The notes beneath the pieces are model-generated. The model worked only from the letters and a program-made list of their open reading frames with translations, made no database searches and was not told the DNA's origin. The position numbers were made by a program, and so were the translations under genes. A DNA stretch of 51,050 nt from Anaerolineae bacterium (GTDB lineage: Bacteria; Chloroflexota; JAHJIN01), in contig DAOTYG010000346.1 of assembly GCA_034435155.1 (NCBI GenBank), positions 1 through 51,050 of the forward strand, read 5' to 3'. How positions within the stretch are numbered: the stretch's first letter is position 1; the number at the start of each line of letters is the position of its first letter. This document shows positions 11,568 through 50,708 of this stretch, in pieces.

Positions 11568-11667
11568 GGGAGTGGAAGGGTCCCGGTGGGCCCCGCGGGC
11601 TTCAAACCCGTTTGTTGGGCATGGCAAAGATGTCCAAGGTGGGTTCGACTCCCATGCACTCCCGCCA
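11568..11667 (+). tRNA. selC: tRNA-Sec (anticodon TCA)
   Basis: Anticodon loop CTTCAAA; 6-bp D stem with CGGT loop; long variable arm; GGTTCGACTCC T arm; ends GCCA. Confidence 0.93.
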
Positions 11668-37836: not shown

Positions 37837-38604
37837 ATGCGCAGATGGCTGGCACTTCTGATCGGTGTCCTGCTTCTGGCCACGATCCTGGTGGGGGCCG
37901 GGGTCTTGATCACCTCCTGGTCGCCGGCCCCCACCCCGCCGGTGGAATCGCCCGGCCTGACCAGCCCGGCGCCAGATGCTTATGCCGGGCAACGCCAACG
38001 CATGGTGCAAGAGATCGCCGCCCAGGGGGTGACCAACGCGCAGGTGCTGGCGGCGTTTCAGGCCGTGCCGCGCCATGAACTGGTGCCGCCGGAGATGGTC
38101 CCCCTGGCTTACGCCGACCGCCCTCTACCCATCGGCTACGGGCAAACCATCTCCCAGCCATATATGGTGGCCTATATGACCGAGTTGCTGGAGCTGAAAG
38201 GCGGAGAGCGCGTGCTGGAGATCGGCACCGGGTCCGGCTATCAGGCGGCTATCCTGGCCGAACTGGGGGCGGAGGTCTATTCCGTGGAGATCATCCCGGA
38301 GCTATACGAACGGGCCACCGCTAATCTGGCCCGGCTGGGTTATCGGGTGCATACCCGTCGTGCCGACGGCTACTACGGCTGGGCCGAACACGCCCCCTAT
38401 GATGCCATCGTGGTCACGGCGGCGCCGGACCACATCCCCCCGCCACTGGTACAACAACTCAAACCTGGCGGTCGCCTGGTCATCCCGGTGGGGCCGCCGG
38501 GCCTGTACCAGACCCTGTGGTTGGTGATCCGGCGCGAAGGCGACCAGGTGGAGATGCTCAACAAGGGGGGCTGTGTCTTTGTCCCCCTGACCCGGGAGCA
38601 ATGA
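37837..38604 (+). CDS. pcm: Protein-L-isoaspartate O-methyltransferase with N-terminal TM/signal
   Basis: VPRH, AYADRPLPIG.GQTISQPY, LEIGTGSGYQAA, PYDAIVVTAA, FVPL. Confidence 0.93.
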   Translation: MRRWLALLIGVLLLATILVGAGVLITSWSPAPTPPVESPGLTSPAPDAYAGQRQRMVQEIAAQGVTNAQVLAAFQAVPRHELVPPEMVPLAYADRPLPIGYGQTISQPYMVAYMTELLELKGGERVLEIGTGSGYQAAILAELGAEVYSVEIIPELYERATANLARLGYRVHTRRADGYYGWAEHAPYDAIVVTAAPDHIPPPLVQQLKPGGRLVIPVGPPGLYQTLWLVIRREGDQVEMLNKGGCVFVPLTREQ

Positions 38605-41086
38605 CTAACTCACGCCGGCCGGGCATCAGACCGGCCAGGGCATAGCACAGTATGGCAAGCCCCAGCACGGCTGTAAAGCCAGCCTCCAGGGCCAGCATCG
38701 TCGTTACCACTGCGCTGACCACGGAGGCGCAGCCGTTGATGGCCCAGGCCCAGGGCACGATCCCTGGGTGTTGCCCGGCCGCGCGGCGCAGGCCAGCCGG
38801 GAAGGGCATACCCATCAAAACCCCCAGCGGGGCCAGAATCAGGGCCGCTGCCAACAGGCGCGCCCAGAGCGGCCACCCCAACAGAGCCTGGAACGTCAGT
38901 CCCCACCCCCACACAGCGACCAGCAGGACCACCACCAACGCGGCCAGCAGCAGGCGCAGGGGCAAACGCGCCGCGACAAGGCTCCCCAGGCCAGAGTAGA
39001 ATAACAATGCCCCCAGAACCAGCGCAAAGGCAAAGGTGGGGTGGTCAAGAAAGAGTATGAAACGTTGCATCAATGCGAGTTCGGCCAGGAGATAGCCGCC
39101 GCCGAGCAACGCAAAATAGGCCATCCACCGGCACGGAACTTGTCCGATCTGATCAGTATCAGTAGATGAAAAAAGTTGCTCAAAGCGGCGACCGCAGGGC
39201 GCGCCTGGAGCGACTTTTCCCAACCTCACCTCTTCCCCGGCCGGGTTTCCCCGCCGGGCGGCCACCAGCGGCCCCACGATGAGCACCCCAGAGGCCGCCA
39301 GCGATAGCCCCAACGCGGCTACCAGGATCAGATACCCACTGCCCCCGAAGGGCTGCCAGGTGCGGCCCAGAGTGCTCAGGATGGCCGGCACCTGGTTCCA
39401 CTTGAAATAGTGATGGAAAAAGGGCCGGTCATCTGTGGGTGAGGTGAGGGCATAGGCGGCAGTGTGCAGAGCAATTTCCCGCCGGGTCGGATCCACCAGG
39501 CGCGCGGCCAGCTCCTCATAGACCGGTTCGGTCAGCCGGTTATAGCGATTGACCTCGTCCGGGCGCAGGTCAGCGCTCCAGACCAGGTCAAAGCGACGTG
39601 CAGCGCAGAACTCGCGTACTGCTGCCAGGTCGGCCGGGGAGAATGGCGTGGGACAGGCCAGTACGGTAAGGGTGGACCAATCGCGGATGGCCACCAGGTG
39701 CGCGCCGATGTCCGACCAGCCGGCCCGTTCCCCGGCTGCCAGCACCAACGCGAACAGACGCATCTCCTCGCTGGGTGGCTGCTGGAGCCACCGCTGGGCC
39801 ACGAACAGGCCCGTGGGCCGCAGTCGCGCCAGGCAGGCCATCACCCCCTCGATAGTGAGCGTATAGTCCTCGCCCAGCCCGTAGGACCCCACCAGCACCG
39901 GCCGGTAGCTGTCGGTCAGGGCCACCTGGACAATGTCGAATGGCTCTGGCTGGCTGGCCAGCGCGCTGCGCACCCCGGTGGTCTGGACCGTCACGCCGGC
40001 CGCCCTGTATAACCCGCCGCTGAAGGTGGCGAACTCATCGCGCACTGCCTGGACGACAAGGGCGTTAGGTTCCACGACAGTGATAGTCGCCGCCCCGCCC
40101 CGGCGGGCCTGCCATACTTCCAGGCCGCCACGGGGAGCCAGGATCAGGGCCTGGGCTGTGGGCCGGAGGAGATAAGGCAAGGCCGTGGGCCGATAATCCA
40201 GGAACGACAGGTCGCCTGCGCCGGCCGTGATGGGGCTGAGGTTGTCGCCATCCACCGTCAAGCCCAACTGAGCCGGGGGCAGAGCTGGAGAGGCCAGGCT
40301 CAGGCCAGGGGCGGAGCGGATCGCGCTGCTCTCGACCACGTCCACCCGGCCGCTGGCGTCCCAGGCCCGGTAGCAGAGCCGGGCATCCGGGTAGCGCAGC
40401 GCGTAACTCAGGGCCTTGTACGGGGATAGTGACCATTCCAGTGCCGGCGGCCGGGCCACCAGAACGCCGGCTAACAGGGCAACCCCACCCAGGTAGACCA
40501 GGAGCGTGCGGCGGCGGATTCGCCCTGGCTCGGCCCGGCGTAACATCCCGGCGGCGCACCAGGCCAACAGGGCCGTGGCCCAGACGGTCCCTTCACCGCC
40601 CAGGAGGGGCAACAAGATCAACACCACCAGGCAACCGGTCGCAGCACCGGCCATGTTCGCGGCATAGAGGGCCGGCGCGCGGTCCGACCAGCGGGCCAGG
40701 GCCAGGGCCATGACCAGGCCGCCGGCCAGAAATGGGGCCACCAGGAGCAGGTAGCAGGCCACCAGATAAACCCATTGCACGCTTTCCAGGGCCAGGCGAT
40801 ACGTGTCGAAAGGCAGGGCCTTCAGCAGCAAATGACCCCCCGCCAGGGTTCCGGCCATGCTGACGGCGGCGGCCGTCAGGCTATGGCGGCGATCACGCCA
40901 GCCGGGTCGCCAGGCCAGCAAGGACCCACTGGCCCCGGCGCCCAGCAGGGCGATGCTAACACTCAGGAAGGCAAAATGATAACCCTGGGTCAGAGAAAAG
41001 AGCCGGGTGAGGGCGATCTCGAAGGTCAGAGTGGCTGCGGCGATCAGGAACAGCCCGGCGTAGAGTGCGCTGGGTGGCCGGTACAT
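38558..41086 (-). CDS. Spermidine-synthase-like polytopic membrane protein (SAM-dependent fold)
   Basis: FEIALTRLFS..GYHF, YAAN..GAA.G, TDDRPFF, MG.PFP, WAWAING..SV; probable start 41086. Confidence 0.8.
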   Translation of the reverse strand: MYRPPSALYAGLFLIAAATLTFEIALTRLFSLTQGYHFAFLSVSIALLGAGASGSLLAWRPGWRDRRHSLTAAAVSMAGTLAGGHLLLKALPFDTYRLALESVQWVYLVACYLLLVAPFLAGGLVMALALARWSDRAPALYAANMAGAATGCLVVLILLPLLGGEGTVWATALLAWCAAGMLRRAEPGRIRRRTLLVYLGGVALLAGVLVARPPALEWSLSPYKALSYALRYPDARLCYRAWDASGRVDVVESSAIRSAPGLSLASPALPPAQLGLTVDGDNLSPITAGAGDLSFLDYRPTALPYLLRPTAQALILAPRGGLEVWQARRGGAATITVVEPNALVVQAVRDEFATFSGGLYRAAGVTVQTTGVRSALASQPEPFDIVQVALTDSYRPVLVGSYGLGEDYTLTIEGVMACLARLRPTGLFVAQRWLQQPPSEEMRLFALVLAAGERAGWSDIGAHLVAIRDWSTLTVLACPTPFSPADLAAVREFCAARRFDLVWSADLRPDEVNRYNRLTEPVYEELAARLVDPTRREIALHTAAYALTSPTDDRPFFHHYFKWNQVPAILSTLGRTWQPFGGSGYLILVAALGLSLAASGVLIVGPLVAARRGNPAGEEVRLGKVAPGAPCGRRFEQLFSSTDTDQIGQVPCRWMAYFALLGGGYLLAELALMQRFILFLDHPTFAFALVLGALLFYSGLGSLVAARLPLRLLLAALVVVLLVAVWGWGLTFQALLGWPLWARLLAAALILAPLGVLMGMPFPAGLRRAAGQHPGIVPWAWAINGCASVVSAVVTTMLALEAGFTAVLGLAILCYALAGLMPGRRELVIAPGSGGQRHSPPC

Positions 41087-41141
41087 TTGCTTGTTCCCCC
41101 TCATGATGCGCCATGTCCCCTGATCGGCGGAGAATAAAGAT

Positions 41142-41170
41142 ATTGTACCACGGCCGGGCCGGCCAGACAA
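41142..41170 (-). promoter_or_regulatory. sigma70 promoter of spermidine-synthase-like gene
   Basis: TTGTCT-17 nt-TACAAT. Confidence 0.65.
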
Positions 41171-41181
41171 GAGTCCCCCAA

Positions 41182-41365
41182 TTGACATCCGTACGTAAAT
41201 TAAACGCACGATGGCACTGCCCCCCGCTCCGCTTCGCCTCCCTTCGGGGAGGGGAAAGAATGCTTCGTAGGGTTTTTTTGCGGCGGCTTCGCCGCCGCAG
41301 AAACCACCAGAAGGGCTTTCTCTCTCCTTGTTCCCTCCCTGACAGAAGTTATGCACGGATGCCAG
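41182..41365. mobile_element. MITE family B copy 3 with 8-bp TSD
   Basis: TTGACATCCGTACGTAA...TTATGCACGGATGCCAG; TCCCCCAA at 41174-41181 and 41366-41373. Confidence 0.85.
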
Positions 41366-41390
41366 TCCCCCAAACGTCAACCCGGCCCAT

Positions 41391-41419
41391 TTGACAGAAA
41401 TCTCATCCTGTGGTATTAT
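41391..41419 (+). promoter_or_regulatory. rrn P1 promoter
   Basis: TTGACA-17 nt-TATTAT. Confidence 0.8.
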
Positions 41420-41526
41420 TATAATCTCATATGGGGAAGGGCAAAGTCGAGGGCAGACCTACAGCTGGGGGGTAAAAGTTGCCGGGCAGCCTCAAGCCCT
41501 TATAATCGAACAGCGTAGAAACGCCC

Positions 41527-41556
41527 TTGACACAAAGACCGAGGATATGCTATAAT
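41527..41556 (+). promoter_or_regulatory. rrn P2 promoter
   Basis: TTGACA-18 nt-TATAAT. Confidence 0.8.
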
Positions 41557-41612: not shown

Positions 41613-41660
41613 AGGCGCAGCAGATCCAGAGGTTCACACACCAAAGAACCCTAAATTTCT

Positions 41661-43193
<1,533 letters not shown>

Positions 43194-43338
43194 CTAGGGA
43201 GCACACCCTGCGGGAATACCCAAAACCCAAGCCCAAGATGATTGGGATTTGGGGCTTGGGATTTCCGTTAGGCCACTCCCAGGTCGATCCTCTGGAAGTC
43301 CTTCCTATCACTCTTGAGTTGTTTAAGGTACCCCCAGC

Positions 43339-43415
43339 GGGCCTTTAGCTCAGTCGGTTAGAGCGTTCCTCTGATAAGGGAAAGGTCTCAGGTTCGAATC
43401 CTGAAAGGCCCACCA
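43339..43415 (+). tRNA. tRNA-Ile (GAT)
   Basis: Cloverleaf, loop CTGATAA, ends CCA. Confidence 0.97.
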
Positions 43416-43512
43416 ACTGGCGGTTAGCCACTGGCTATTGGCTATTAGCTTTTTGAAAGCAAGGTCAATGGCTAATCGCCCAGAGCTAATCGCCAGTAGC
43501 TAATCGCTAACT

Positions 43513-43587
43513 GGGGATGTAGCTCAGTGGGAGAGCGCCTCCCTTGCACGGAGGAAGTCAGGGGTTCGAATCCCCTCATCTCCACCA
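43513..43587 (+). tRNA. tRNA-Ala (TGC)
   Basis: GGGGATG acceptor with G3:U70, loop CTTGCAC, ends CCA. Confidence 0.97.
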
Positions 43588-43640
43588 GCCTTGACAGGTG
43601 CCAAGAGCAGAAACCACGAAAGCAAGGAAGGAGGAGGTAA

Positions 43641-43940
43641 ATGATGAAGAAAGTATCTGTGAAAATCTTCATTGCAATGGCAATCGTTGCGCTTTTACTT
43701 ACCACAACCGGTCTTGTAGTTCTTGCTGAGCCTCTGGCACCACAGGCTGATGATCCGGGCGGCGGCGGTGGCGGATGTGGGTGTTGTACTATGCGAGTTG
43801 AACGAATGTGTTTCAACAATGGCTGTGGCGGAGAAACGTGTTGGTGTAGGCGCTGTTTCTACAATAGTTGTGGTCAGCTCGTGGATTGTGGAAGGTGGTA
43901 TCGGTGTTCTCATAGCTGCATAACCAGCATAGAACGATAG
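43641..43940 (+). CDS. Secreted cysteine-rich peptide (12 Cys) within the rRNA ITS
   Basis: SD aaggaggaggt; Sec-type signal ending VLA; Gly6 linker; 12 Cys in last ~54 aa. Confidence 0.8.
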   Translation: MMKKVSVKIFIAMAIVALLLTTTGLVVLAEPLAPQADDPGGGGGGCGCCTMRVERMCFNNGCGGETCWCRRCFYNSCGQLVDCGRWYRCSHSCITSIER

Positions 43941-44078
43941 AACAAATAACGCCTGAATCAATCCTGGAATAAGCATAAGACAATTGATGAGTGAAGGGCA
44001 CGCTCTTAACTGAACTGTGCTGGGTTCAACTAAGGAGCCTCTGCCCTTCCGTCTTATATGTCATGTGAGAGGAGCAAA

Positions 44079-44975
44079 GTGAAGCAAAGGCGCGTCTTGG
44101 GGTTGATAGTCCAAGGCATATTCTTGGTTATGACCATAAGCATTGCTGGGTGCAAAGAACAATATGTACCTTCTACCATCATACCACACACTCCCCCTGC
44201 AGAGGGGACTTTCATAGCATCACCCCAAGCTTCTACAGTTGAAGCCTTCACTCCAACGCCACGCATCAAGGCGGCAGAGTCTCAGCATTTCGTATTCTTT
44301 GTGGATGAGAGCAACGTTGATTTTATAATACAAGTGGACAAGATTGAACAAGTATATGCCTATGTGACGCAACGGACAGGTAGCCCAATTAGAGGAAAGG
44401 TTGACGTAACCTTCAGGCAACCTCAGGTTCAACCATGTCCTATAAGAGGGATAGCAGTTTGGCCTGATCTTCAGATCGCCATTTATGCTGATGAGAGTGC
44501 GGGCCAAGACTGCATCTTGGCCGTCATTGCCTGTGAGATAGGCCATCTGATTCAATTTCAAAGTTTTGACGGGGGGCCAACTGATCCGATCCTTCTTGAG
44601 GGCTGGGCGACCTGGGTGGCGGGTTCCTATTGGATTGAGTGGCAGAGGATGCCCTCTTTTGATGAGGGGGTCCGCTCTTACTTGCGGGATAAGCGATTTG
44701 TTTCCATTTCTAGATTTGATATTTCAACCTTAATCTACAAGAGTGAAGAGTGCCTTGAGCGCAGGGATATTGTCTATACTGAATATGCCTCATTCCTCAA
44801 CTACCTCATTGAGCGATATGGAATTAACGCTTTGAATTCACTCATAACTGCAAATATCCCAACAAGCCCTCCCTCTGAGGGTGCTGATCCTCGAGCTGAC
44901 TATCAAACTGTATATGGCAAAACACTCCAGGAATTGGAAAACGACTGGATCAAGTATCTCATGGGAGGGAATTGA
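44079..44975 (+). CDS. Lipoprotein, peptidase MA/gluzincin-like fold with CEIGH...EG motif
   Basis: SD gaggag + GTG; lipobox IAGC; ACEIGH, LLEGWATW, Y..YASFLNYLIERYG, YG..L.ELE..W pattern. Confidence 0.72.
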   Translation: MKQRRVLGLIVQGIFLVMTISIAGCKEQYVPSTIIPHTPPAEGTFIASPQASTVEAFTPTPRIKAAESQHFVFFVDESNVDFIIQVDKIEQVYAYVTQRTGSPIRGKVDVTFRQPQVQPCPIRGIAVWPDLQIAIYADESAGQDCILAVIACEIGHLIQFQSFDGGPTDPILLEGWATWVAGSYWIEWQRMPSFDEGVRSYLRDKRFVSISRFDISTLIYKSEECLERRDIVYTEYASFLNYLIERYGINALNSLITANIPTSPPSEGADPRADYQTVYGKTLQELENDWIKYLMGGN

Positions 44976-45011
44976 ACGTTCCGGGTGGTCCAAAGTAGTC
45001 CAAAATGGCAC

Positions 45012-45040
45012 TTGACAGGGGTGAGAGATTAAGGTATACT
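45012..45040 (+). promoter_or_regulatory. Internal sigma70 promoter for 23S-5S
   Basis: TTGACA-17 nt-TATACT; boxA-like CACATTAACAACTGAA at about 45262-45277. Confidence 0.8.
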
Positions 45041-46019
45041 TGGGGTGAAATTAGAAACTAGCTAGGCTAGAAGGTGGAACATAACATGGCTGGTGAGGAC
45101 ACATAGAACGGTTTGCACGAGACCCCGGCAGCCCCAGGCGGCGCGAGGGTTCTCGGGCCGTTTTTTGTGCCTCTGAGAAGGTTGGCCGTCGGCCAGCGGG
45201 CGTGAGTGCCGAAGAGCATTGGCGTCCGGGGGCTGGTGACCAACAAGGTCACTGGGATCGCACATTAACAACTGAATAGAGATGCATGGCTTCAATTTCG
45301 CTGGCTTAACGAGGACAAGCTACTAAGGGCACATGGTGGATGCCTGGGCGTAAGGAGCCGAAGAAGGGCGCGGTAGGCGGCGATACGCCCCGGGGAGCGG
45401 CGAACACGCGTCGATCCGGGGATGCCCGAATGGGGAAACCCGGCGTGGGTAATACCACGTCACCCCCCGCTGAACACATAGGCGGGGTGGGGGGAACCGG
45501 GGGAACTGAAACATCTAAGTACCCCGAGGAAAAGAGAGTATTCCCTGAGTAGTGGCGAGCGAAAGGGGAACAGCCCAAACCGGTGTCGTGTCAAGGTCGC
45601 AGCCGTTGCGATACTGGGGTTGGAAGGCGCGGCGGGGTTGCTGCGAAGACCCACAGGAGTTACCAAACTGGTTTGTAATCGAAGGAACCTGGGAAGGACG
45701 TGCCATAGAGGGTGATAGCCCCGTAGATGAAACAAACCAGTCTCCTGCCGCTGACCTTGAGTACCACGGGGCACGCTAATCCTGTGGGAAGCAGGGGGGT
45801 CCACCTCCCAAGGCTAAATACTCCTTATGACCGATAGTGAACGAGTACCGTGAGGGAAAGGTGAAAAGCACCGGGGTGACCGGAGTGAAATAGTACCTGA
45901 AACCGTGTGCCTACAAGCAGTGGAAGGGTGTTGCCTCACTTTGAGGTAGCCTGACCGCGTGCCTTTTGGAGAATGAACCGGCGAGTTAATCTGTGTAGCC
46001 AGGCTAAGGGAGAGACACC

Positions 46020-46053
<34 letters not shown>

Positions 46054-46373
46054 CTATGGTTGCACGGATTAGACCCGAAACCAGGTGAGCTACCCATGGC
46101 CAGGGTGAAGCGAGGGTAATACCTCGTGGAGGCCCGAACCTTTCAGTGTTGCAAAACTGCTGGATGAGCTGTGGGTAGAGGTGATATGCCAAACGAACCT
46201 GGAAATAGCTGGTTCTCCCCGAAATAGCTTTAGGGCTAGCCTCAGGCGTTTAGCGATGGAGGTAGGGCTCTGGATGGGCTAGGGGCCAGAATGGTTACCA
46301 AACTCAACCAAACCACTAATGCCATCGCTCTAGAGCCTGGGAGTCGGACAGTGGGGGATAAGCTTCATTGTCG

Positions 46374-46408
<35 letters not shown>

Positions 46409-46445
46409 GAAGTCCAGGCTAAGTGGGAAAGGATGTGGGGGCGCG

Positions 46446-46527
<82 letters not shown>

Positions 46528-46564
46528 TAATCCAACGGGGCTTAAGCCTGGCACCGAAGCTGCG

Positions 46565-46648
46565 GGAGGTTGGGAACTGGTAAATCAGGGAATTGGTAGA
46601 TTGGGCAACCAATTTACCAGACTACCAATTTACCAATGTACCAACTTC
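46565..46648 (+). repeat. Helix-45 expansion / IVS built from 8-mer repeats
   Basis: Between CACCGAAGCTGCG and GGTAGGGGAGCG; five ACCAnnnT units pairing with TGG-containing arm; GCAA loop. Confidence 0.8.
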
Positions 46649-47287
46649 GGTAGGGGAGCGTTCTGCGCGCGGCGAAGCCAGACCGTAAGGACTGGTCGAG
46701 AGCGCAGAAGTGAGAATGCCGGTATGAGTAGCGTAAGGCGAGTGATGAAACTCGTCCGCCGAAAGCCTAAGGTTTCCTGGGGAAGGTTAATCCGCCCAGG
46801 GTCAGCCGGTCCTAAGCCGAGGCCCACCGGCGTAGGCGATGGATAACTGGTGTATATTCCAGTGCCATGAGGCATCGTTTGAGCGATGGGGGGACGCGGA
46901 AGGGTAGGCTAGCGCATTACTGGATTTGCGTTCGATGCCTGTAGGGGGTGGACCCAGGCAAATCCGGGTCCATATCCAACCCTGAGGGGCAAAGTAGGCC
47001 TTCGGGCCATAAGTAGTCAATCCCAGGCCGTCAAGAAAAGCCTCTAGCAAGATGCCCTCGTGACCGTACCGCAAACCGCCACTGGTAGGTAGGTAGAGCA
47101 TACCCAGGCGATCGGGAGAACCCTCGTTAAGGAATTAGGCAAATTGACCCCGTAACTTCGGGAGAAGGGGTGCCCCGGTAGGGTGAAAGTACAAGTTGCT
47201 GGAGCCCGAGGGGGTCGCAGCGAACAGGCTCGGGCGACTGTTTAACAAAAACACAGGTCTCTGCTAAAGCGAAAGCTGATGTATAGG

Positions 47288-47318
<31 letters not shown>

Positions 47319-47360
47319 AGGGAGGGGTTAGCTTCCCTTTGGGGGAGCGAAGCTCTGAAC

Positions 47361-48174
<814 letters not shown>

Positions 48175-48188
48175 AACGGTCCTAAGGT

Positions 48189-48876
48189 GACAGTCGTTGC
48201 CTGCCCCGGCGGTAACGTCGGGGGCAATACCTGGCTGTATGCGGGAATACCCTTAGAGCCCGTCCTACTCGGGAGATGATCTCCCAGTAAAAATGGCCGG
48301 GATTGGGCAATCCGCAGGAAACCCTTTGGAAGGGGATCCTCAGAGACTACACGCCAGGCGTCCAGTGTGGAGGTATCTATGGACCTCTCCCCCGACTGGG
48401 TAGTCGGGTTCGTGGATGGGGAGGGATGCTTCTACGTGGGCATCAATCCCCACCGCGAAATGACGGTAGGATACCAGGTTTTGCCCGAGTTCCGTGTGGT
48501 CCAGCATGAGAGTGATGTCCAGGTGCTTTACGCCCTGAAGAGATTCTTTCGATGTGGCGTTGTCCGTCGCAATCGAGAGGATCGTTACGAACTGAGAATC
48601 CGCAAACTATCTTGTCTGCAAGAGGTGGTAGAGTTTTTCGAGCACCATCCCTTGAAGACGAAGAAGAATGTGGATTTCAAAAAGTTCGCCCGGATTGTGA
48701 GATGGATGAGCGAAAAACAGCATCTCACGCCGGAGGGGTTGATCAAAATCGCTGAAACATCACTTTCAATGAATCACGCGGACAAGGTCAAGACCCAGGA
48801 AATCCTGCAGCTGCTGAAACAGCAGTATGGACGAAGAGATAGTCCACCCCAGGCAGAAATGTCTGGATGATAGGTG
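48189..48876 (+). ncRNA. Group I intron at 23S position 1931 (688 nt)
   Basis: Exons CCTAAGGT^AGCGAAAT; P1 AGGT/GCCT; P10 TCGTT/AGCGA; core ATGCGGGAA, AATCCGCAGG, TCAGAGACTAC, GATAGTCC; terminal G. Confidence 0.93.
48379..48870 (+). CDS. Single-motif LAGLIDADG homing endonuclease (L1931 intron)
   Basis: WVVGFVDGEGCF, FRVVQH, L.TKK..DF.KF, HLT.EG; SD ggaggt. Confidence 0.95.
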   Translation: MDLSPDWVVGFVDGEGCFYVGINPHREMTVGYQVLPEFRVVQHESDVQVLYALKRFFRCGVVRRNREDRYELRIRKLSCLQEVVEFFEHHPLKTKKNVDFKKFARIVRWMSEKQHLTPEGLIKIAETSLSMNHADKVKTQEILQLLKQQYGRRDSPPQAEMSG

Positions 48877-48896
48877 AGCGAAATTCCTTGTCGGGT

Positions 48897-49589
48897 AAGT
48901 GTAAACGAGCCCGTATCGGCTAATAACGGTGAAGCCCTACCTCGTTGCGGTGCACAAGGACACCGTGCCAAAGAGAGGGTGATACCGTGGGAAGTCGTCC
49001 GCAAGGATTGACCCCGTAACGACTGAGGCGCAAGCCGAGGTGGTGTCTCCTGCCCCAGCGGGCAAATCTATGAGCGCCACAACACGCCGATATCTCTCCC
49101 GAGGAGTGAAGCCCATGGATATCAAGTCCTATCTAACCGGGTATGCCGATGGTGAGGGATGCTTCTGCGTCTCCATTAACAGAAGCCGCAGGCACGCTTT
49201 TGGCTGGGAGATAAGGCCAAGTTTTTCCATCAGCCAAAACCGTGACCGCGCAGAGGTATTGGAGATATACCAACGTCAGTTTGGTTGTGGGAGCATCCGC
49301 CCGGACAGATCGGACAAGACGCTCAAGTATGAGGTTCGGAGCGTGAGGGAGCTAGTGCAGCGGGTAATACCTCATTTCGAGGAGACTCCTCTACTGTCCG
49401 GGAAGCGTCATGACTTTGAGAGGTTTGCTGTTATCTGTAGGATGATGTATGAGAGGCAGCACCTCACGAGGGATGGTTTCGACCGGATTGTGGACCTGGC
49501 TTTTGAGATGAATCCATCGGGTAATAGAAAGTATGCCAGGAGAGAGATAAAGATATAGTCTGTGCCCCTGGTAACAGGGGGAGCACACG
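48897..49589 (+). ncRNA. Group I intron at 23S position 1951 (693 nt)
   Basis: Exons TGTCGGGT^AAGTTCCGAC; P1 CGGGT/GCCCG; core AACGACTGA and AAGATATAGTCT; terminal G. Confidence 0.9.
49115..49558 (+). CDS. Single-motif LAGLIDADG homing endonuclease (L1951 intron)
   Basis: [35 protein letters not shown]; SD gaggag. Confidence 0.95.
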
Positions 49590-49686
49590 AAGTTCCGACC
49601 CGCACGAACGGCGTAACGATCCGAGCACTGTCTCGACGAGGGACCCGGCGAAATTGAAGTACCCGTGAAGATGCGGGTTACCCACG

Positions 49687-49717
<31 letters not shown>

Positions 49718-49923
49718 ACAGCTTGGCATTGAGTTGGAATCTGGCTTGTGTAGGATAGGTGGGAGACTGGGAAGCTGGGGCGCCAGCCTCGGTGGAGTCG
49801 GCGTTGAAATACCACTCTGGTCAGATTTTGACCCTAACCGGCGACCGTGAATCCGGCGCTGGGACAGTGCCTGGTGGGTAGTTTGACTGGGGCGGTCGCC
49901 TCCCAAAAGGTAACGGAGGCGCC

Positions 49924-49954
<31 letters not shown>

Positions 49955-49998
49955 CCAGAGAGTGTAAAGGCACAAGGGAGCTTGACTGCGAGACCCAC

Positions 49999-50034
<36 letters not shown>

Positions 50035-50063
50035 TACGGTCCCGTGTGGAAGGGCCGTGGCTT

Positions 50064-50096
<33 letters not shown>

Positions 50097-50126
50097 TATC
50101 TTGCCCAAGAGTTCACATCGACGGCA

Positions 50127-50168
<42 letters not shown>

Positions 50169-50172
50169 GAGT

Positions 50173-50258
<86 letters not shown>

Positions 50259-50374
50259 CGTGGGCGCAGGGGACTTGAGGGGAGTTGTCCACAGTACGAG
50301 AGGACCTGGATGAACAGACCTCTAGTGTGCCAGTTGTACCGCCAGGTGCATTGCTGGGTAGCTACGTCTGGAAG

Positions 50375-50407
<33 letters not shown>

Positions 50408-50591
50408 CCCCCCAAGATGAGGTCCCCCACCGGGTTAACCGGGTAAGACCGCAGGAAGAAGACCTGCTTGATAGGCGGCCAGTGTAAGCGCAGCAATGCG
50501 TTCAGCTTAGCCGTACTAATGGTCGAGGGCTTGTTCACGTTGAGCCAGCGACATTGAAGCTATGCACTCTATTCGACTGTCATAACAACCT

Positions 50592-50708
50592 TCTCCGTGA
50601 CTTTAGCGAAGGGGATCACCCAGTTCCATCCCGAACCTGGTCGTTAAGCCCTTCAGCGCCGACGATACTGGGGGGGCAGCCCCTTGGGAAAATAGGTCGT
50701 TGCGGAGA
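50592..50708 (+). rRNA. rrf: 5S rRNA
   Basis: CCATCCCGAAC, GTTAAGC, AGCGCCGACGATAC, ATAGGTCG; terminal stem TCTCCG/CGGAGA. Confidence 0.95.

Follow-up and report, generated by a model that had tools for sequence, protein, structure and literature searches.

The 16S-23S spacer of a ribosomal RNA (rRNA) operon in an Anaerolineae bacterium contains two protein genes which, we propose with moderate confidence, form a horizontally acquired islet without an integrase, located directly 3' of the spacer tRNA-Ala gene in an otherwise complete operon. The operon closes, on the + strand, the 51,050-nt contig DAOTYG010000346.1, all of which was analysed and which we call the window. Its spacer measures 2119 nt (43193 to 45313), and an AT-rich cargo segment of about 1.4 kb, running from tRNA-Ala to the 23S leader, holds two open reading frames (ORFs) on the + strand, in the same orientation as the rRNA: ORF1, for a cysteine-rich exported peptide, and ORF2, for a predicted lipoprotein. 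The insertion after tRNA-Ala is common to three related lineages, and the tRNA-Ala of a near relative has taken up a second block. Ribosomal RNA operons are among the most conserved and most transcribed of bacterial loci, and it is rare for their 16S-23S spacer to contain protein genes.

Composition and position of the segment

The GC content of positions 43588-45011 is 47.4%, against 63.9% in positions 1-41000 of the window and 57-59% in the rRNA genes. At third codon positions the GC content (GC3) of the two cargo genes is 0.43-0.47, whereas eight genes of the host, dnaE, clpB, rpsA and argS among them, have 0.75-0.83. The composition of the cargo is foreign to its host; elsewhere the window consists of ordinary core chromosome. 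The cargo sits 3' of the last tRNA and outside both rRNA processing stems (Table 1), and a relaxed-threshold Rfam search of the spacer returned no known RNA families beyond the tRNAs and the rRNA ends. A Pfam scan of all larger ORFs of the window, including those in the 41 kb upstream of the operon, revealed neither an integrase nor a transposase.

These results bear out much of an earlier, sequence-only reading of the segment, which had pointed to lower GC between tRNA-Ala and the 23S leader, to two exported products encoded on the rRNA strand, each with a Shine-Dalgarno (SD) sequence, to the lack of integrase and transposase genes, and to the lack of both a complete cargo promoter and a terminator after tRNA-Ala. 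Only the start of ORF2 needs changing, most likely to the GTG at 44079. The same reading had proposed a search for swapped cargo in the spacers of related genomes, and sister populations indeed carry two further two-gene blocks there.

Table 1. Features of the rRNA operon and its spacer, in window coordinates unless another contig is named.
Feature	Position	Strand	Remarks
Three sigma-70-like rrn promoters (TTGACA-17-TATTAT; TTGCCG-16-TATAAT; TTGACA-18-TATAAT)	41391..41556	+	consensus scan, 10-12 of 12 matches
Leader boxA-like 12-mer TTAACAACTGAA	41590..41601	+	read from sequence
16S rRNA gene	41658..43193	+	Rfam RF00177, 1523 bits, full length
tRNA-Ile (GAT)	43339..43415	+	ARAGORN, Rfam
tRNA-Ala (TGC), CCA encoded	43513..43587	+	ARAGORN, Rfam
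Left boundary repeat CTTGACAGG	43590..43598	+	right-hand copy is the -35 of the promoter at 45012
ORF1, 99-aa precursor	43641..43940	+	
ORF2, 298-aa lipoprotein (predicted)	44079..44975	+	
Recombination breakpoint inside ORF2	44310..44345	.	upstream L002-like, downstream L001-like
Internal promoter-like element TTGACA-17-TATACT	45012..45040	+	11 of 12 matches
GC-rich hairpin then T6, terminator-like	45140..45166	+	conserved
Spacer boxA-like 12-mer TTAACAACTGAA	45265..45276	+	conserved in L001, L002
23S processing stem, 5' strand	45274..45311	+	pairs with 50538-50574, near-perfect complementarity, read from sequence
23S rRNA gene with ~2.2 kb of intron sequence inside	~45313..50526	+	Rfam RF02541 in two pieces, RF00028
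5S rRNA gene	50593..50708	+	
55-nt direct repeat copies in L003	601-655 and 2038-2092		54/55 identical

The layout in related genomes

The order 16S, tRNA-Ile, tRNA-Ala, ORF1, ORF2, promoter, 23S is shared by more than ten assemblies from three lineages, comprising metagenome contigs from NCBI (L001, L015), contigs from JGI (L002-L007, L016, L021) and ENA (L013, L014), and one Logan contig (L025). The Logan contig is 100% identical to window positions 43560-45441, and the diverged lineages that share the junctions show 84-94% protein identity. The synteny of L013 and L019 with the window extends over ~10 kb upstream, where nucleotide identity is 93-96%, and their 16S is 98.9% identical; in L001 the 16S identity is 97.8% and the upstream genes differ.

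It is important to ask whether the segment is an assembly artefact, that is, a chimeric join between rRNA fragments and unrelated low-GC DNA from the metagenome. The window is the whole of a metagenome-type contig, rRNA operons are often misassembled, and the composition of the insert is sharply unlike that of its flanks. But assemblies from NCBI, JGI, ENA and Logan, which represent three or more diverged lineages, repeat both junctions (tRNA-Ala/ORF1 and ORF2/23S leader), and a chimera would not be inherited and diverge along with the operon. We regard the artefact as effectively refuted. A misjoin, which the sequence-only reading had named as grounds for discarding its claim, is excluded because so many assemblies share both junctions.

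Judged by their substitution patterns, both cargo genes are real and under purifying selection. The ratio of nonsynonymous to synonymous rates (dN/dS) is 0.25-0.29 for ORF1, measured against its more distant copy, and 0.20-0.30 for ORF2. The ORF1 differences at codon positions 1/2/3 number 11/9/19, an enrichment at third positions, and the synonymous excess has a Fisher p=1.5e-4. The ORF1 copy of L001 (9566-9841) has lost one base of an A-run and is thereby frameshifted, and the near-identical copy of L015 is intact; the frameshift is either an assembly error or a polymorphism.

The islet is also maintained and exchanged between lineages by homologous recombination. Up to ~44310 the window cargo differs by 1-8% from L002, and from there through the rest of ORF2 it is closer to L001. 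The informative sites divide 89:12 (L002-like:L001-like) upstream and 29:66 downstream (Fisher p=3e-17), a pattern that marks the window ORF2 as a chimera of the alleles of two lineages. The L001-like, imported part contains the active-site allele CEIGH, in which a His is replaced by Cys; a natural zinc-site variant of ORF2 has in this way moved between lineages. The islet is more diverged (90% identity) than the chromosomal flanks (96%), and we attribute the difference to allele exchange. Between the ORF2 stop and the promoter, L002 (2612-2745) has ~130 nt more than the window; the extra DNA, with the 15-nt palindromes AGGTGCGACGCACCT and AGGTGCGTCGCACCT on either side, could be a small insertion resembling a miniature inverted-repeat transposable element (MITE) or a repetitive extragenic palindrome (REP).

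Further blocks at the spacer tRNA-Ala

In a sister population represented in JGI and ENA, whose chromosomal flanks are 96% identical to those of the window, the spacer extends to ~5.3 kb and holds six genes, arranged as tRNA-Ala, block A, ORF1-ORF2, promoter and hairpin, block B, boxA, 23S. Block A (1382 bp) encodes a secreted Amidase_6 protein and a membrane-anchored protein of 224 aa; block B, located before 23S, encodes two signal-peptide proteins of 310 and 147 aa. Export or anchor signals are present in 6/6 of the spacer proteins, and 6/6 of the genes run in the rRNA direction. Searches of Pfam, NCBIfam and PDB sequences returned nothing credible for the extra cargo proteins A2, B1 and B2. 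Within the rRNA spacer of part of the sister population, the Amidase_6 gene of block A is broken by a GC-rich element that resembles an insertion sequence (IS) and encodes a 492-aa helix-turn-helix protein (L016 1-416; L017 1-1763).

Block A is flanked by a 55-nt direct repeat (seen in L003, L013 and L021, with 54/55 positions identical), which starts within the anticodon of tRNA-Ala and takes in 13 nt downstream of the gene. The repeats are of the kind that defines the left and right attachment sites (attL and attR) of tRNA islands, namely direct repeats made of the 3' part of the target tRNA gene. Duplication of a tRNA half from the anticodon loop is the usual footprint of tyrosine integrases that act at an anticodon-loop site. 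Block A itself contains no recombinase.

At the islet of the window, the repeat CTTGACAGG(TGC) stands exactly at both edges of the low-GC segment. In the relatives the boundary repeat is 12 nt long, CTTGACAGGTGC, and in L003 it exceeds 500 shuffles. The left copy is not followed by a -10 element, and the L001/L015 lineage has it in the mutated form CTTGATGG. A decayed tRNA half at the right edge of the ORF1-ORF2 block was considered as well and rejected, the similarity being not significant.

The mechanism that we propose is one in which blocks would enter by site-specific recombination at the 3' half of tRNA-Ala, catalysed by a tyrosine-type integrase that is encoded elsewhere and acts in trans, or that has since been lost. 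Successive blocks would then pile up by tandem accretion, as for elements of the cis-mobilizable (CIME) type. Traces of mobility were sought in three kinds of collection. A scan of a genome collection for the tRNA-Ala end joined to CTTGACAGG produced four unrelated matches (metagenome-assembled genomes of Synergistetes, Phycisphaerales and Betaproteobacteria), no relatives and no empty site. A metagenome scan with a longer att pattern recovered only the JGI population already found, and no empty site; on viral contigs, neither ORF2, nor the Amidase_6 protein, nor the att pattern gave a match. No junction of an excised circle appeared in the genome, metagenome or viral scans.

Transcription signals in the spacer

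Promoters were sought by the sigma-70 consensus only. The sites found upstream of 16S are present in L013 also. Beyond them the scan detected no promoter-like site on the + strand of the window between 41556 and 45012, and likewise none from the 16S promoters to the internal promoter in L002 and L013. Between the 16S promoters and 45012 there is no credible terminator in the window, nor in L002 or L013; the terminator-like matches that this stretch of the window does have are weak, fall within coding sequence and do not outnumber those in shuffles. A small GGCGG..GCCGC hairpin precedes the leader boxA-like 12-mer, and the leader and spacer 12-mers are identical, which suggests an rrn operon competent for antitermination.

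Since the consensus scan gives the cargo genes no promoter and they share the orientation of the rRNA, their simplest route to expression would be co-transcription from the rrn promoters. Read-through is plausible on these grounds: the cargo would probably be transcribed from the 16S promoters by boxA-modified polymerase, and 3' processing of tRNA-Ala would create the 5' end of its mRNA. If read-through is confirmed, the locus would provide natural mRNAs that derive from an rRNA precursor and are freed by tRNA processing.

A promoter-like element stands between the cargo and 23S. Four sequences share both of its hexamers unchanged, in a setting that is only ~78% identical, and it is the one promoter-like site on the + strand of the relatives' 5.3-kb spacer. 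The sequence-only reading had ended its segment at 45040, on the -10 hexamer of this TTGACA-17-TATACT, and had overlooked the element. About 100 nt after it comes the hairpin with T6, which has one internal mismatch in the window, is perfect in the relatives, and is the top terminator match in L002 and L013, where it has 10 pairs, 7 of them GC. The internal promoter would let 23S-5S also run alone, with the operon working as two units, and an operon of two units may be an intermediate stage towards 'unlinked' rRNA genes. Promoter and hairpin together (45012-45166) have the layout of a ~120-nt small RNA or of a leader attenuator before 23S; no Rfam family matches the interval, and an alternative stem (~45118-45155) overlaps the hairpin.

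Unlinked rRNA genes have been defined by a 16S-23S distance greater than 1500 bp (Brewer et al., 10.1101/705046). In that survey, 98.7% of pairs lie within 1500 bp, with a mean of 419 bp, the pairs above the limit average ~410 kb apart, and a term search of the paper finds no mention of mobile elements or integration. One may ask, therefore, whether the present locus is simply two unlinked halves, that is, separate 16S-tRNA and 23S-5S units between which ordinary accessory genes, with a weak or non-sigma-70 promoter, occupy a position without meaning. The invariant internal promoter followed by hairpin and boxA mirrors the 16S leader, the 2119-nt spacer exceeds the limit that 98.7% of the pairs respect, and in part of the sister population the spacer tolerates an IS-like insertion. 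However, no promoter-like site for the cargo is found in three lineages, no terminator separates it from tRNA-Ala, all six cargo genes of the expanded spacer are co-oriented with the rRNA, and the terminator-like hairpin follows the internal promoter, where separate units would place it before. We consider two unlinked halves possible, if rather unlikely. The sequence-only reading had listed this outcome as fatal to its own claim, and it applies in part: 23S-5S does have an invariant near-consensus promoter, hairpin and boxA of its own, so that the locus is partly on the way to that state.

Set against the unlinked class, the locus looks like an early intermediate towards it. It shares with that class the 16S-23S distance above 1500 bp (2119 nt here, ~5.3 kb in the relatives), the protein genes in between and the promoter-like element of 23S; it differs in that its rRNA genes are adjacent and co-oriented and retain intact processing stems and boxA.

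The two cargo proteins

ORF1 is preceded by a strong SD, GGAGGAGG, at 43630-37. Its product consists of an N-terminal signal peptide with a hydrophobic core, of the plain Sec type, a G6 linker and a mature part of ~55 residues with 12 Cys. It is an orphan peptide: 5.8 billion proteins include only two related clusters (94% and 80% identity), both of which occupy the same spacer position, and it has no Pfam, NCBIfam or PDB sequence match. A double-glycine leader is absent, and transporter or modification genes were not found in the spacer or nearby (window ORFs, Pfam).

For ORF2 the most likely start is GTG 44079, which its relatives and the database gene call also use, and not the ATG 44058 of an earlier listing; the SD GAGAGGAG lies directly upstream of the GTG. 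The resulting N-terminus, ...FLVMTISIAG-C, agrees with the lipobox pattern [LVI][ASTVI][GAS]C. The lipobox I-A-G-C is kept, with A-G-C invariant across five homologues, and ORF2 is on this evidence a predicted lipoprotein.

A profile search of 1.84 billion cluster representatives returned 303 relatives of ORF2, 86 of them below 1e-30. In an alignment of 74 members, HExxH, a Glu 18 residues later and a pair of Cys are invariant or nearly so: the first His is conserved in at least 90% of the members, and the Glu and second His of the motif are invariant. The third zinc ligand in ORF2 is the E of LLEGWATW, the 18th residue after the second His, likewise at least 90% conserved in the family. The Cys pair suggests an extracytoplasmic disulfide. 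An AlphaFold (AF2) model built on the 74-member alignment reached a predicted local distance difference test score (pLDDT) of 86.2 and a predicted template modelling score (pTM) of 0.82; a first model, from a 4-sequence alignment, had a pLDDT of 35 and was discarded. The best PDB matches of the model in Foldseek are catalytic domains of M1 aminopeptidases, with E=4e-5 to 1e-3, TM 0.40-0.46 for the E=4e-5 match and TMq 0.34-0.46 among the best matches. A profile search of PDB sequences weakly matches the active-site segment, the same region as in the Foldseek placement. Against Pfam Peptidase_MA_2, ORF2 scores 22 bits, under the gathering score of 32.4, and sub-threshold matches to this entry occur in 30/74 family members; there is no NCBIfam match.

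The modelled fold and the family motifs together indicate that ORF2 belongs to an uncharacterised family of gluzincin metallopeptidases (thermolysin-like, clan MA(E)). It resembles known gluzincins (M1 and thermolysin-like enzymes, Peptidase_MA_2) in its fold by Foldseek and in the family's HExxH with Glu 18 residues after the second His. It is unlike M1 and Peptidase_MA_2 proteins in being a single-domain lipoprotein of ~300 aa, below the Pfam gathering score, with the first His changed to Cys. The active-site motif reads CEIGH, not HExxH, in the window, L001 and L015, and is intact in the homologues of L002 (HEMGH) and L008 (HEVGH). The protein would be a membrane-tethered extracytoplasmic zincin, possibly altered or inactive since its first zinc-binding His is a Cys. 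The only ORF2 homologue of intermediate identity (58%, HEVGH, with a lipobox) is that of L008 (1-1849), a contig of 56% GC in which the gene stands outside any rRNA context; an ORF upstream of it resembles, by eye, a thioredoxin-like C-terminal end. Both cargo proteins are uncharacterised, one an orphan 12-Cys peptide and the other from a lipoprotein zincin family of ~300 clusters without a curated assignment.

The weakest part of our account concerns the relation of the two products. We infer that the secreted, disulfide-rich peptide of ORF1 might act with ORF2 as substrate, inhibitor or partner, from conserved adjacency only, in three close lineages; Cys-rich partner ORFs were looked for beside distant ORF2 relatives and none was found there.

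A stronger form of this idea was put forward by the sequence-only reading, according to which the pair would be a dedicated and undescribed system, either bacteriocin and immunity protein or peptide signal and processing protease, placed in the rrn spacer for high expression coupled to growth rate. Both products are exported, the order and orientation of the pair are kept in three lineages, both genes have a strong SD and no promoter of their own, and the neighbouring blocks are also two-gene exported sets, one with an Amidase_6 protein, much like effector/immunity cassettes. Yet the hallmarks of class II bacteriocins (a double-glycine leader, an ABC/C39 exporter and a small membrane immunity protein) are lacking in ORF1-ORF2: the signal of ORF1 is an ordinary Sec one, genes for a dedicated transporter or for modification are absent nearby, and ORF2, a 298-aa thermolysin-like zincin by prediction, is not a known immunity type and has Cys as its first zinc ligand in the window. 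Furthermore, other members of the ORF2 family lack a Cys-rich partner, the L001 copy of ORF1 is frameshifted, and nothing ties expression to growth rate. A dedicated system seems to us quite unlikely, and nothing specific speaks for the particular pairings named by the earlier reading, ORF2 being a zincin lipoprotein with a His-to-Cys change, ORF1 having a plain Sec signal, and the distant ORF2 relatives being without such a partner.

Weighing the proposed origin

Several results weigh against our proposal of an acquired islet, read through from the rrn promoters. The repeat that flanks the islet of the window is only 9 nt long (12 nt in the relatives) and by itself at chance level, the DNA upstream of its right copy has no significant similarity to a tRNA half, and the repeat flanking block B in L002 is not significant. 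An integrase-type origin for the window's islet is argued, by analogy, from the neighbouring block. Neither the window nor the relatives' flanks yielded an integrase, and the genome, metagenome and viral scans turned up neither an empty site nor a copy of any block in free or alternative form. As to expression, the hairpin and T-run downstream of the internal promoter are unfit for a simple two-unit design, and weak promoters, which a sigma-70 scan would miss, could be present in such AT-rich DNA of a GC-rich host. Finally, the 58%-identical ORF2 homologue of L008 and the distant family members are without an ORF1-like neighbour.

Relation to known systems

CIMEs are decayed islands targeted to tRNA genes, which tandem accretion stacks up (Guedon et al. 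2017, PMC5704250). Dehalococcoides genomes likewise carry islands at tRNA-Ala and ssrA, flanked in the former case by tRNA-Ala 3' pieces that recur (McMurdie et al. 2009, PMC2764846). The present islet resembles both in its insertion at the 3' end of a tRNA gene, its foreign composition and the absence of a recombinase inside the block. As in CIMEs, the islet holds no genes for integration or transfer, only ORF1 and ORF2, and the relatives show a repeated tRNA 3' half of 55 nt starting from the anticodon loop and two tandem blocks with the newer next to the intact tRNA. Unlike CIMEs, the present blocks are tiny, with two genes in ~1.4 kb and no promoter, and all run in one direction; their target tRNA belongs to the spacer of an rRNA operon, and the window block keeps a repeat of 9-12 nt only; neither a cognate integrase, an excised circle nor an empty site was seen in the genome, metagenome and viral scans. 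To call the locus an undescribed system, as the sequence-only reading tentatively did, is too strong: it fits an integrase-less islet at a tRNA hot spot, and its spacer of more than 1.5 kb falls under the published unlinked rRNA genes.

A more far-reaching alternative would treat the spacer tRNA-Ala as an integron-like platform for capture and expression, which takes up promoterless two-gene cassettes for exported proteins by means of an integrase in trans, expresses them from the rrn promoters under antitermination, releases them by tRNA processing and trades their alleles. The parallel with integron arrays lies in promoterless, co-oriented blocks stacked after a strong fixed promoter, with copies of a recombination site between them and the newest block nearest the promoter. 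Unlike integron arrays, however, the locus has no intI-type integrase adjoining (41 kb upstream in the window, and in the relatives' flanks) and no identified attC-type sites; its repeat is a tRNA half, each block has two genes, and three blocks are known. The defining set of an integron, intI with attI and the Pc promoter, is not present, and the window, its relatives and the scans offered no integrase, further cassettes or sign of mobility. We judge such a platform very doubtful.

Genes between or beside rRNA genes are known from other bacteria. The rrs-rrlA spacer of Borrelia, for example, holds ORFs. SAR11 genomes have a hypervariable region associated with their rRNA genes (Wilhelm 2007 and Grote 2012, both cited in 10.64898/2026.04.03.716430). 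The two cases are like the present islet in having variable or accessory genes beside or between rRNA genes, and unlike it in comprising regions of tens of kb or housekeeping-type ORFs that are not tied to duplications of a spacer tRNA. What is new here is the combination of very small, promoterless, co-oriented blocks for exported proteins, a place inside an otherwise intact operon, and step-wise growth between populations that are ~96% identical. One and the same spacer is found with 2.1 kb and two genes, with ~5.3 kb and six genes, and in some cells with an IS-like insertion in addition. The duplicated tRNA half that marks one of these gains would supply a concrete mechanism for the origin of unlinked rRNA genes, namely accretion of islets at a spacer tRNA, with a 23S promoter already there.

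Other features of the operon and the window

Upstream of the islet, the interval between tRNA-Ile and tRNA-Ala (43429-43507) contains three to four copies of a 14-nt unit (..GCTAATCGC..), variants of which are also present in L001 and L003.

The 23S gene is interrupted at window 47390-49657, over ~2.2 kb, by sequence that includes a group I intron (48132-48866; Rfam RF00028) and ORFs of the LAGLIDADG type, two of them confirmed by Pfam (47534-48040, 48367-48870) and a third called from sequence only (49040-49558). L001 and L002 have shorter intron sets in the same region. In the sister population a group I intron with a LAGLIDADG ORF occupies the extreme 3' end of the 16S gene (L013 5499-6315; L017 2473-3289, - strand; L019 11034-11850); this intron is absent from the window and from L001.

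Past the 5S gene the window has 340 nt only. Elsewhere it carries a tRNA-Sec (TCA) gene at 11568-11667, from which it follows that the organism uses selenocysteine. On the - strand, a 940-aa ORF without a Pfam match (38558-41380) reaches to just upstream of the rrn promoters; L013 and L019 conserve it, with a called gene of 842 aa.

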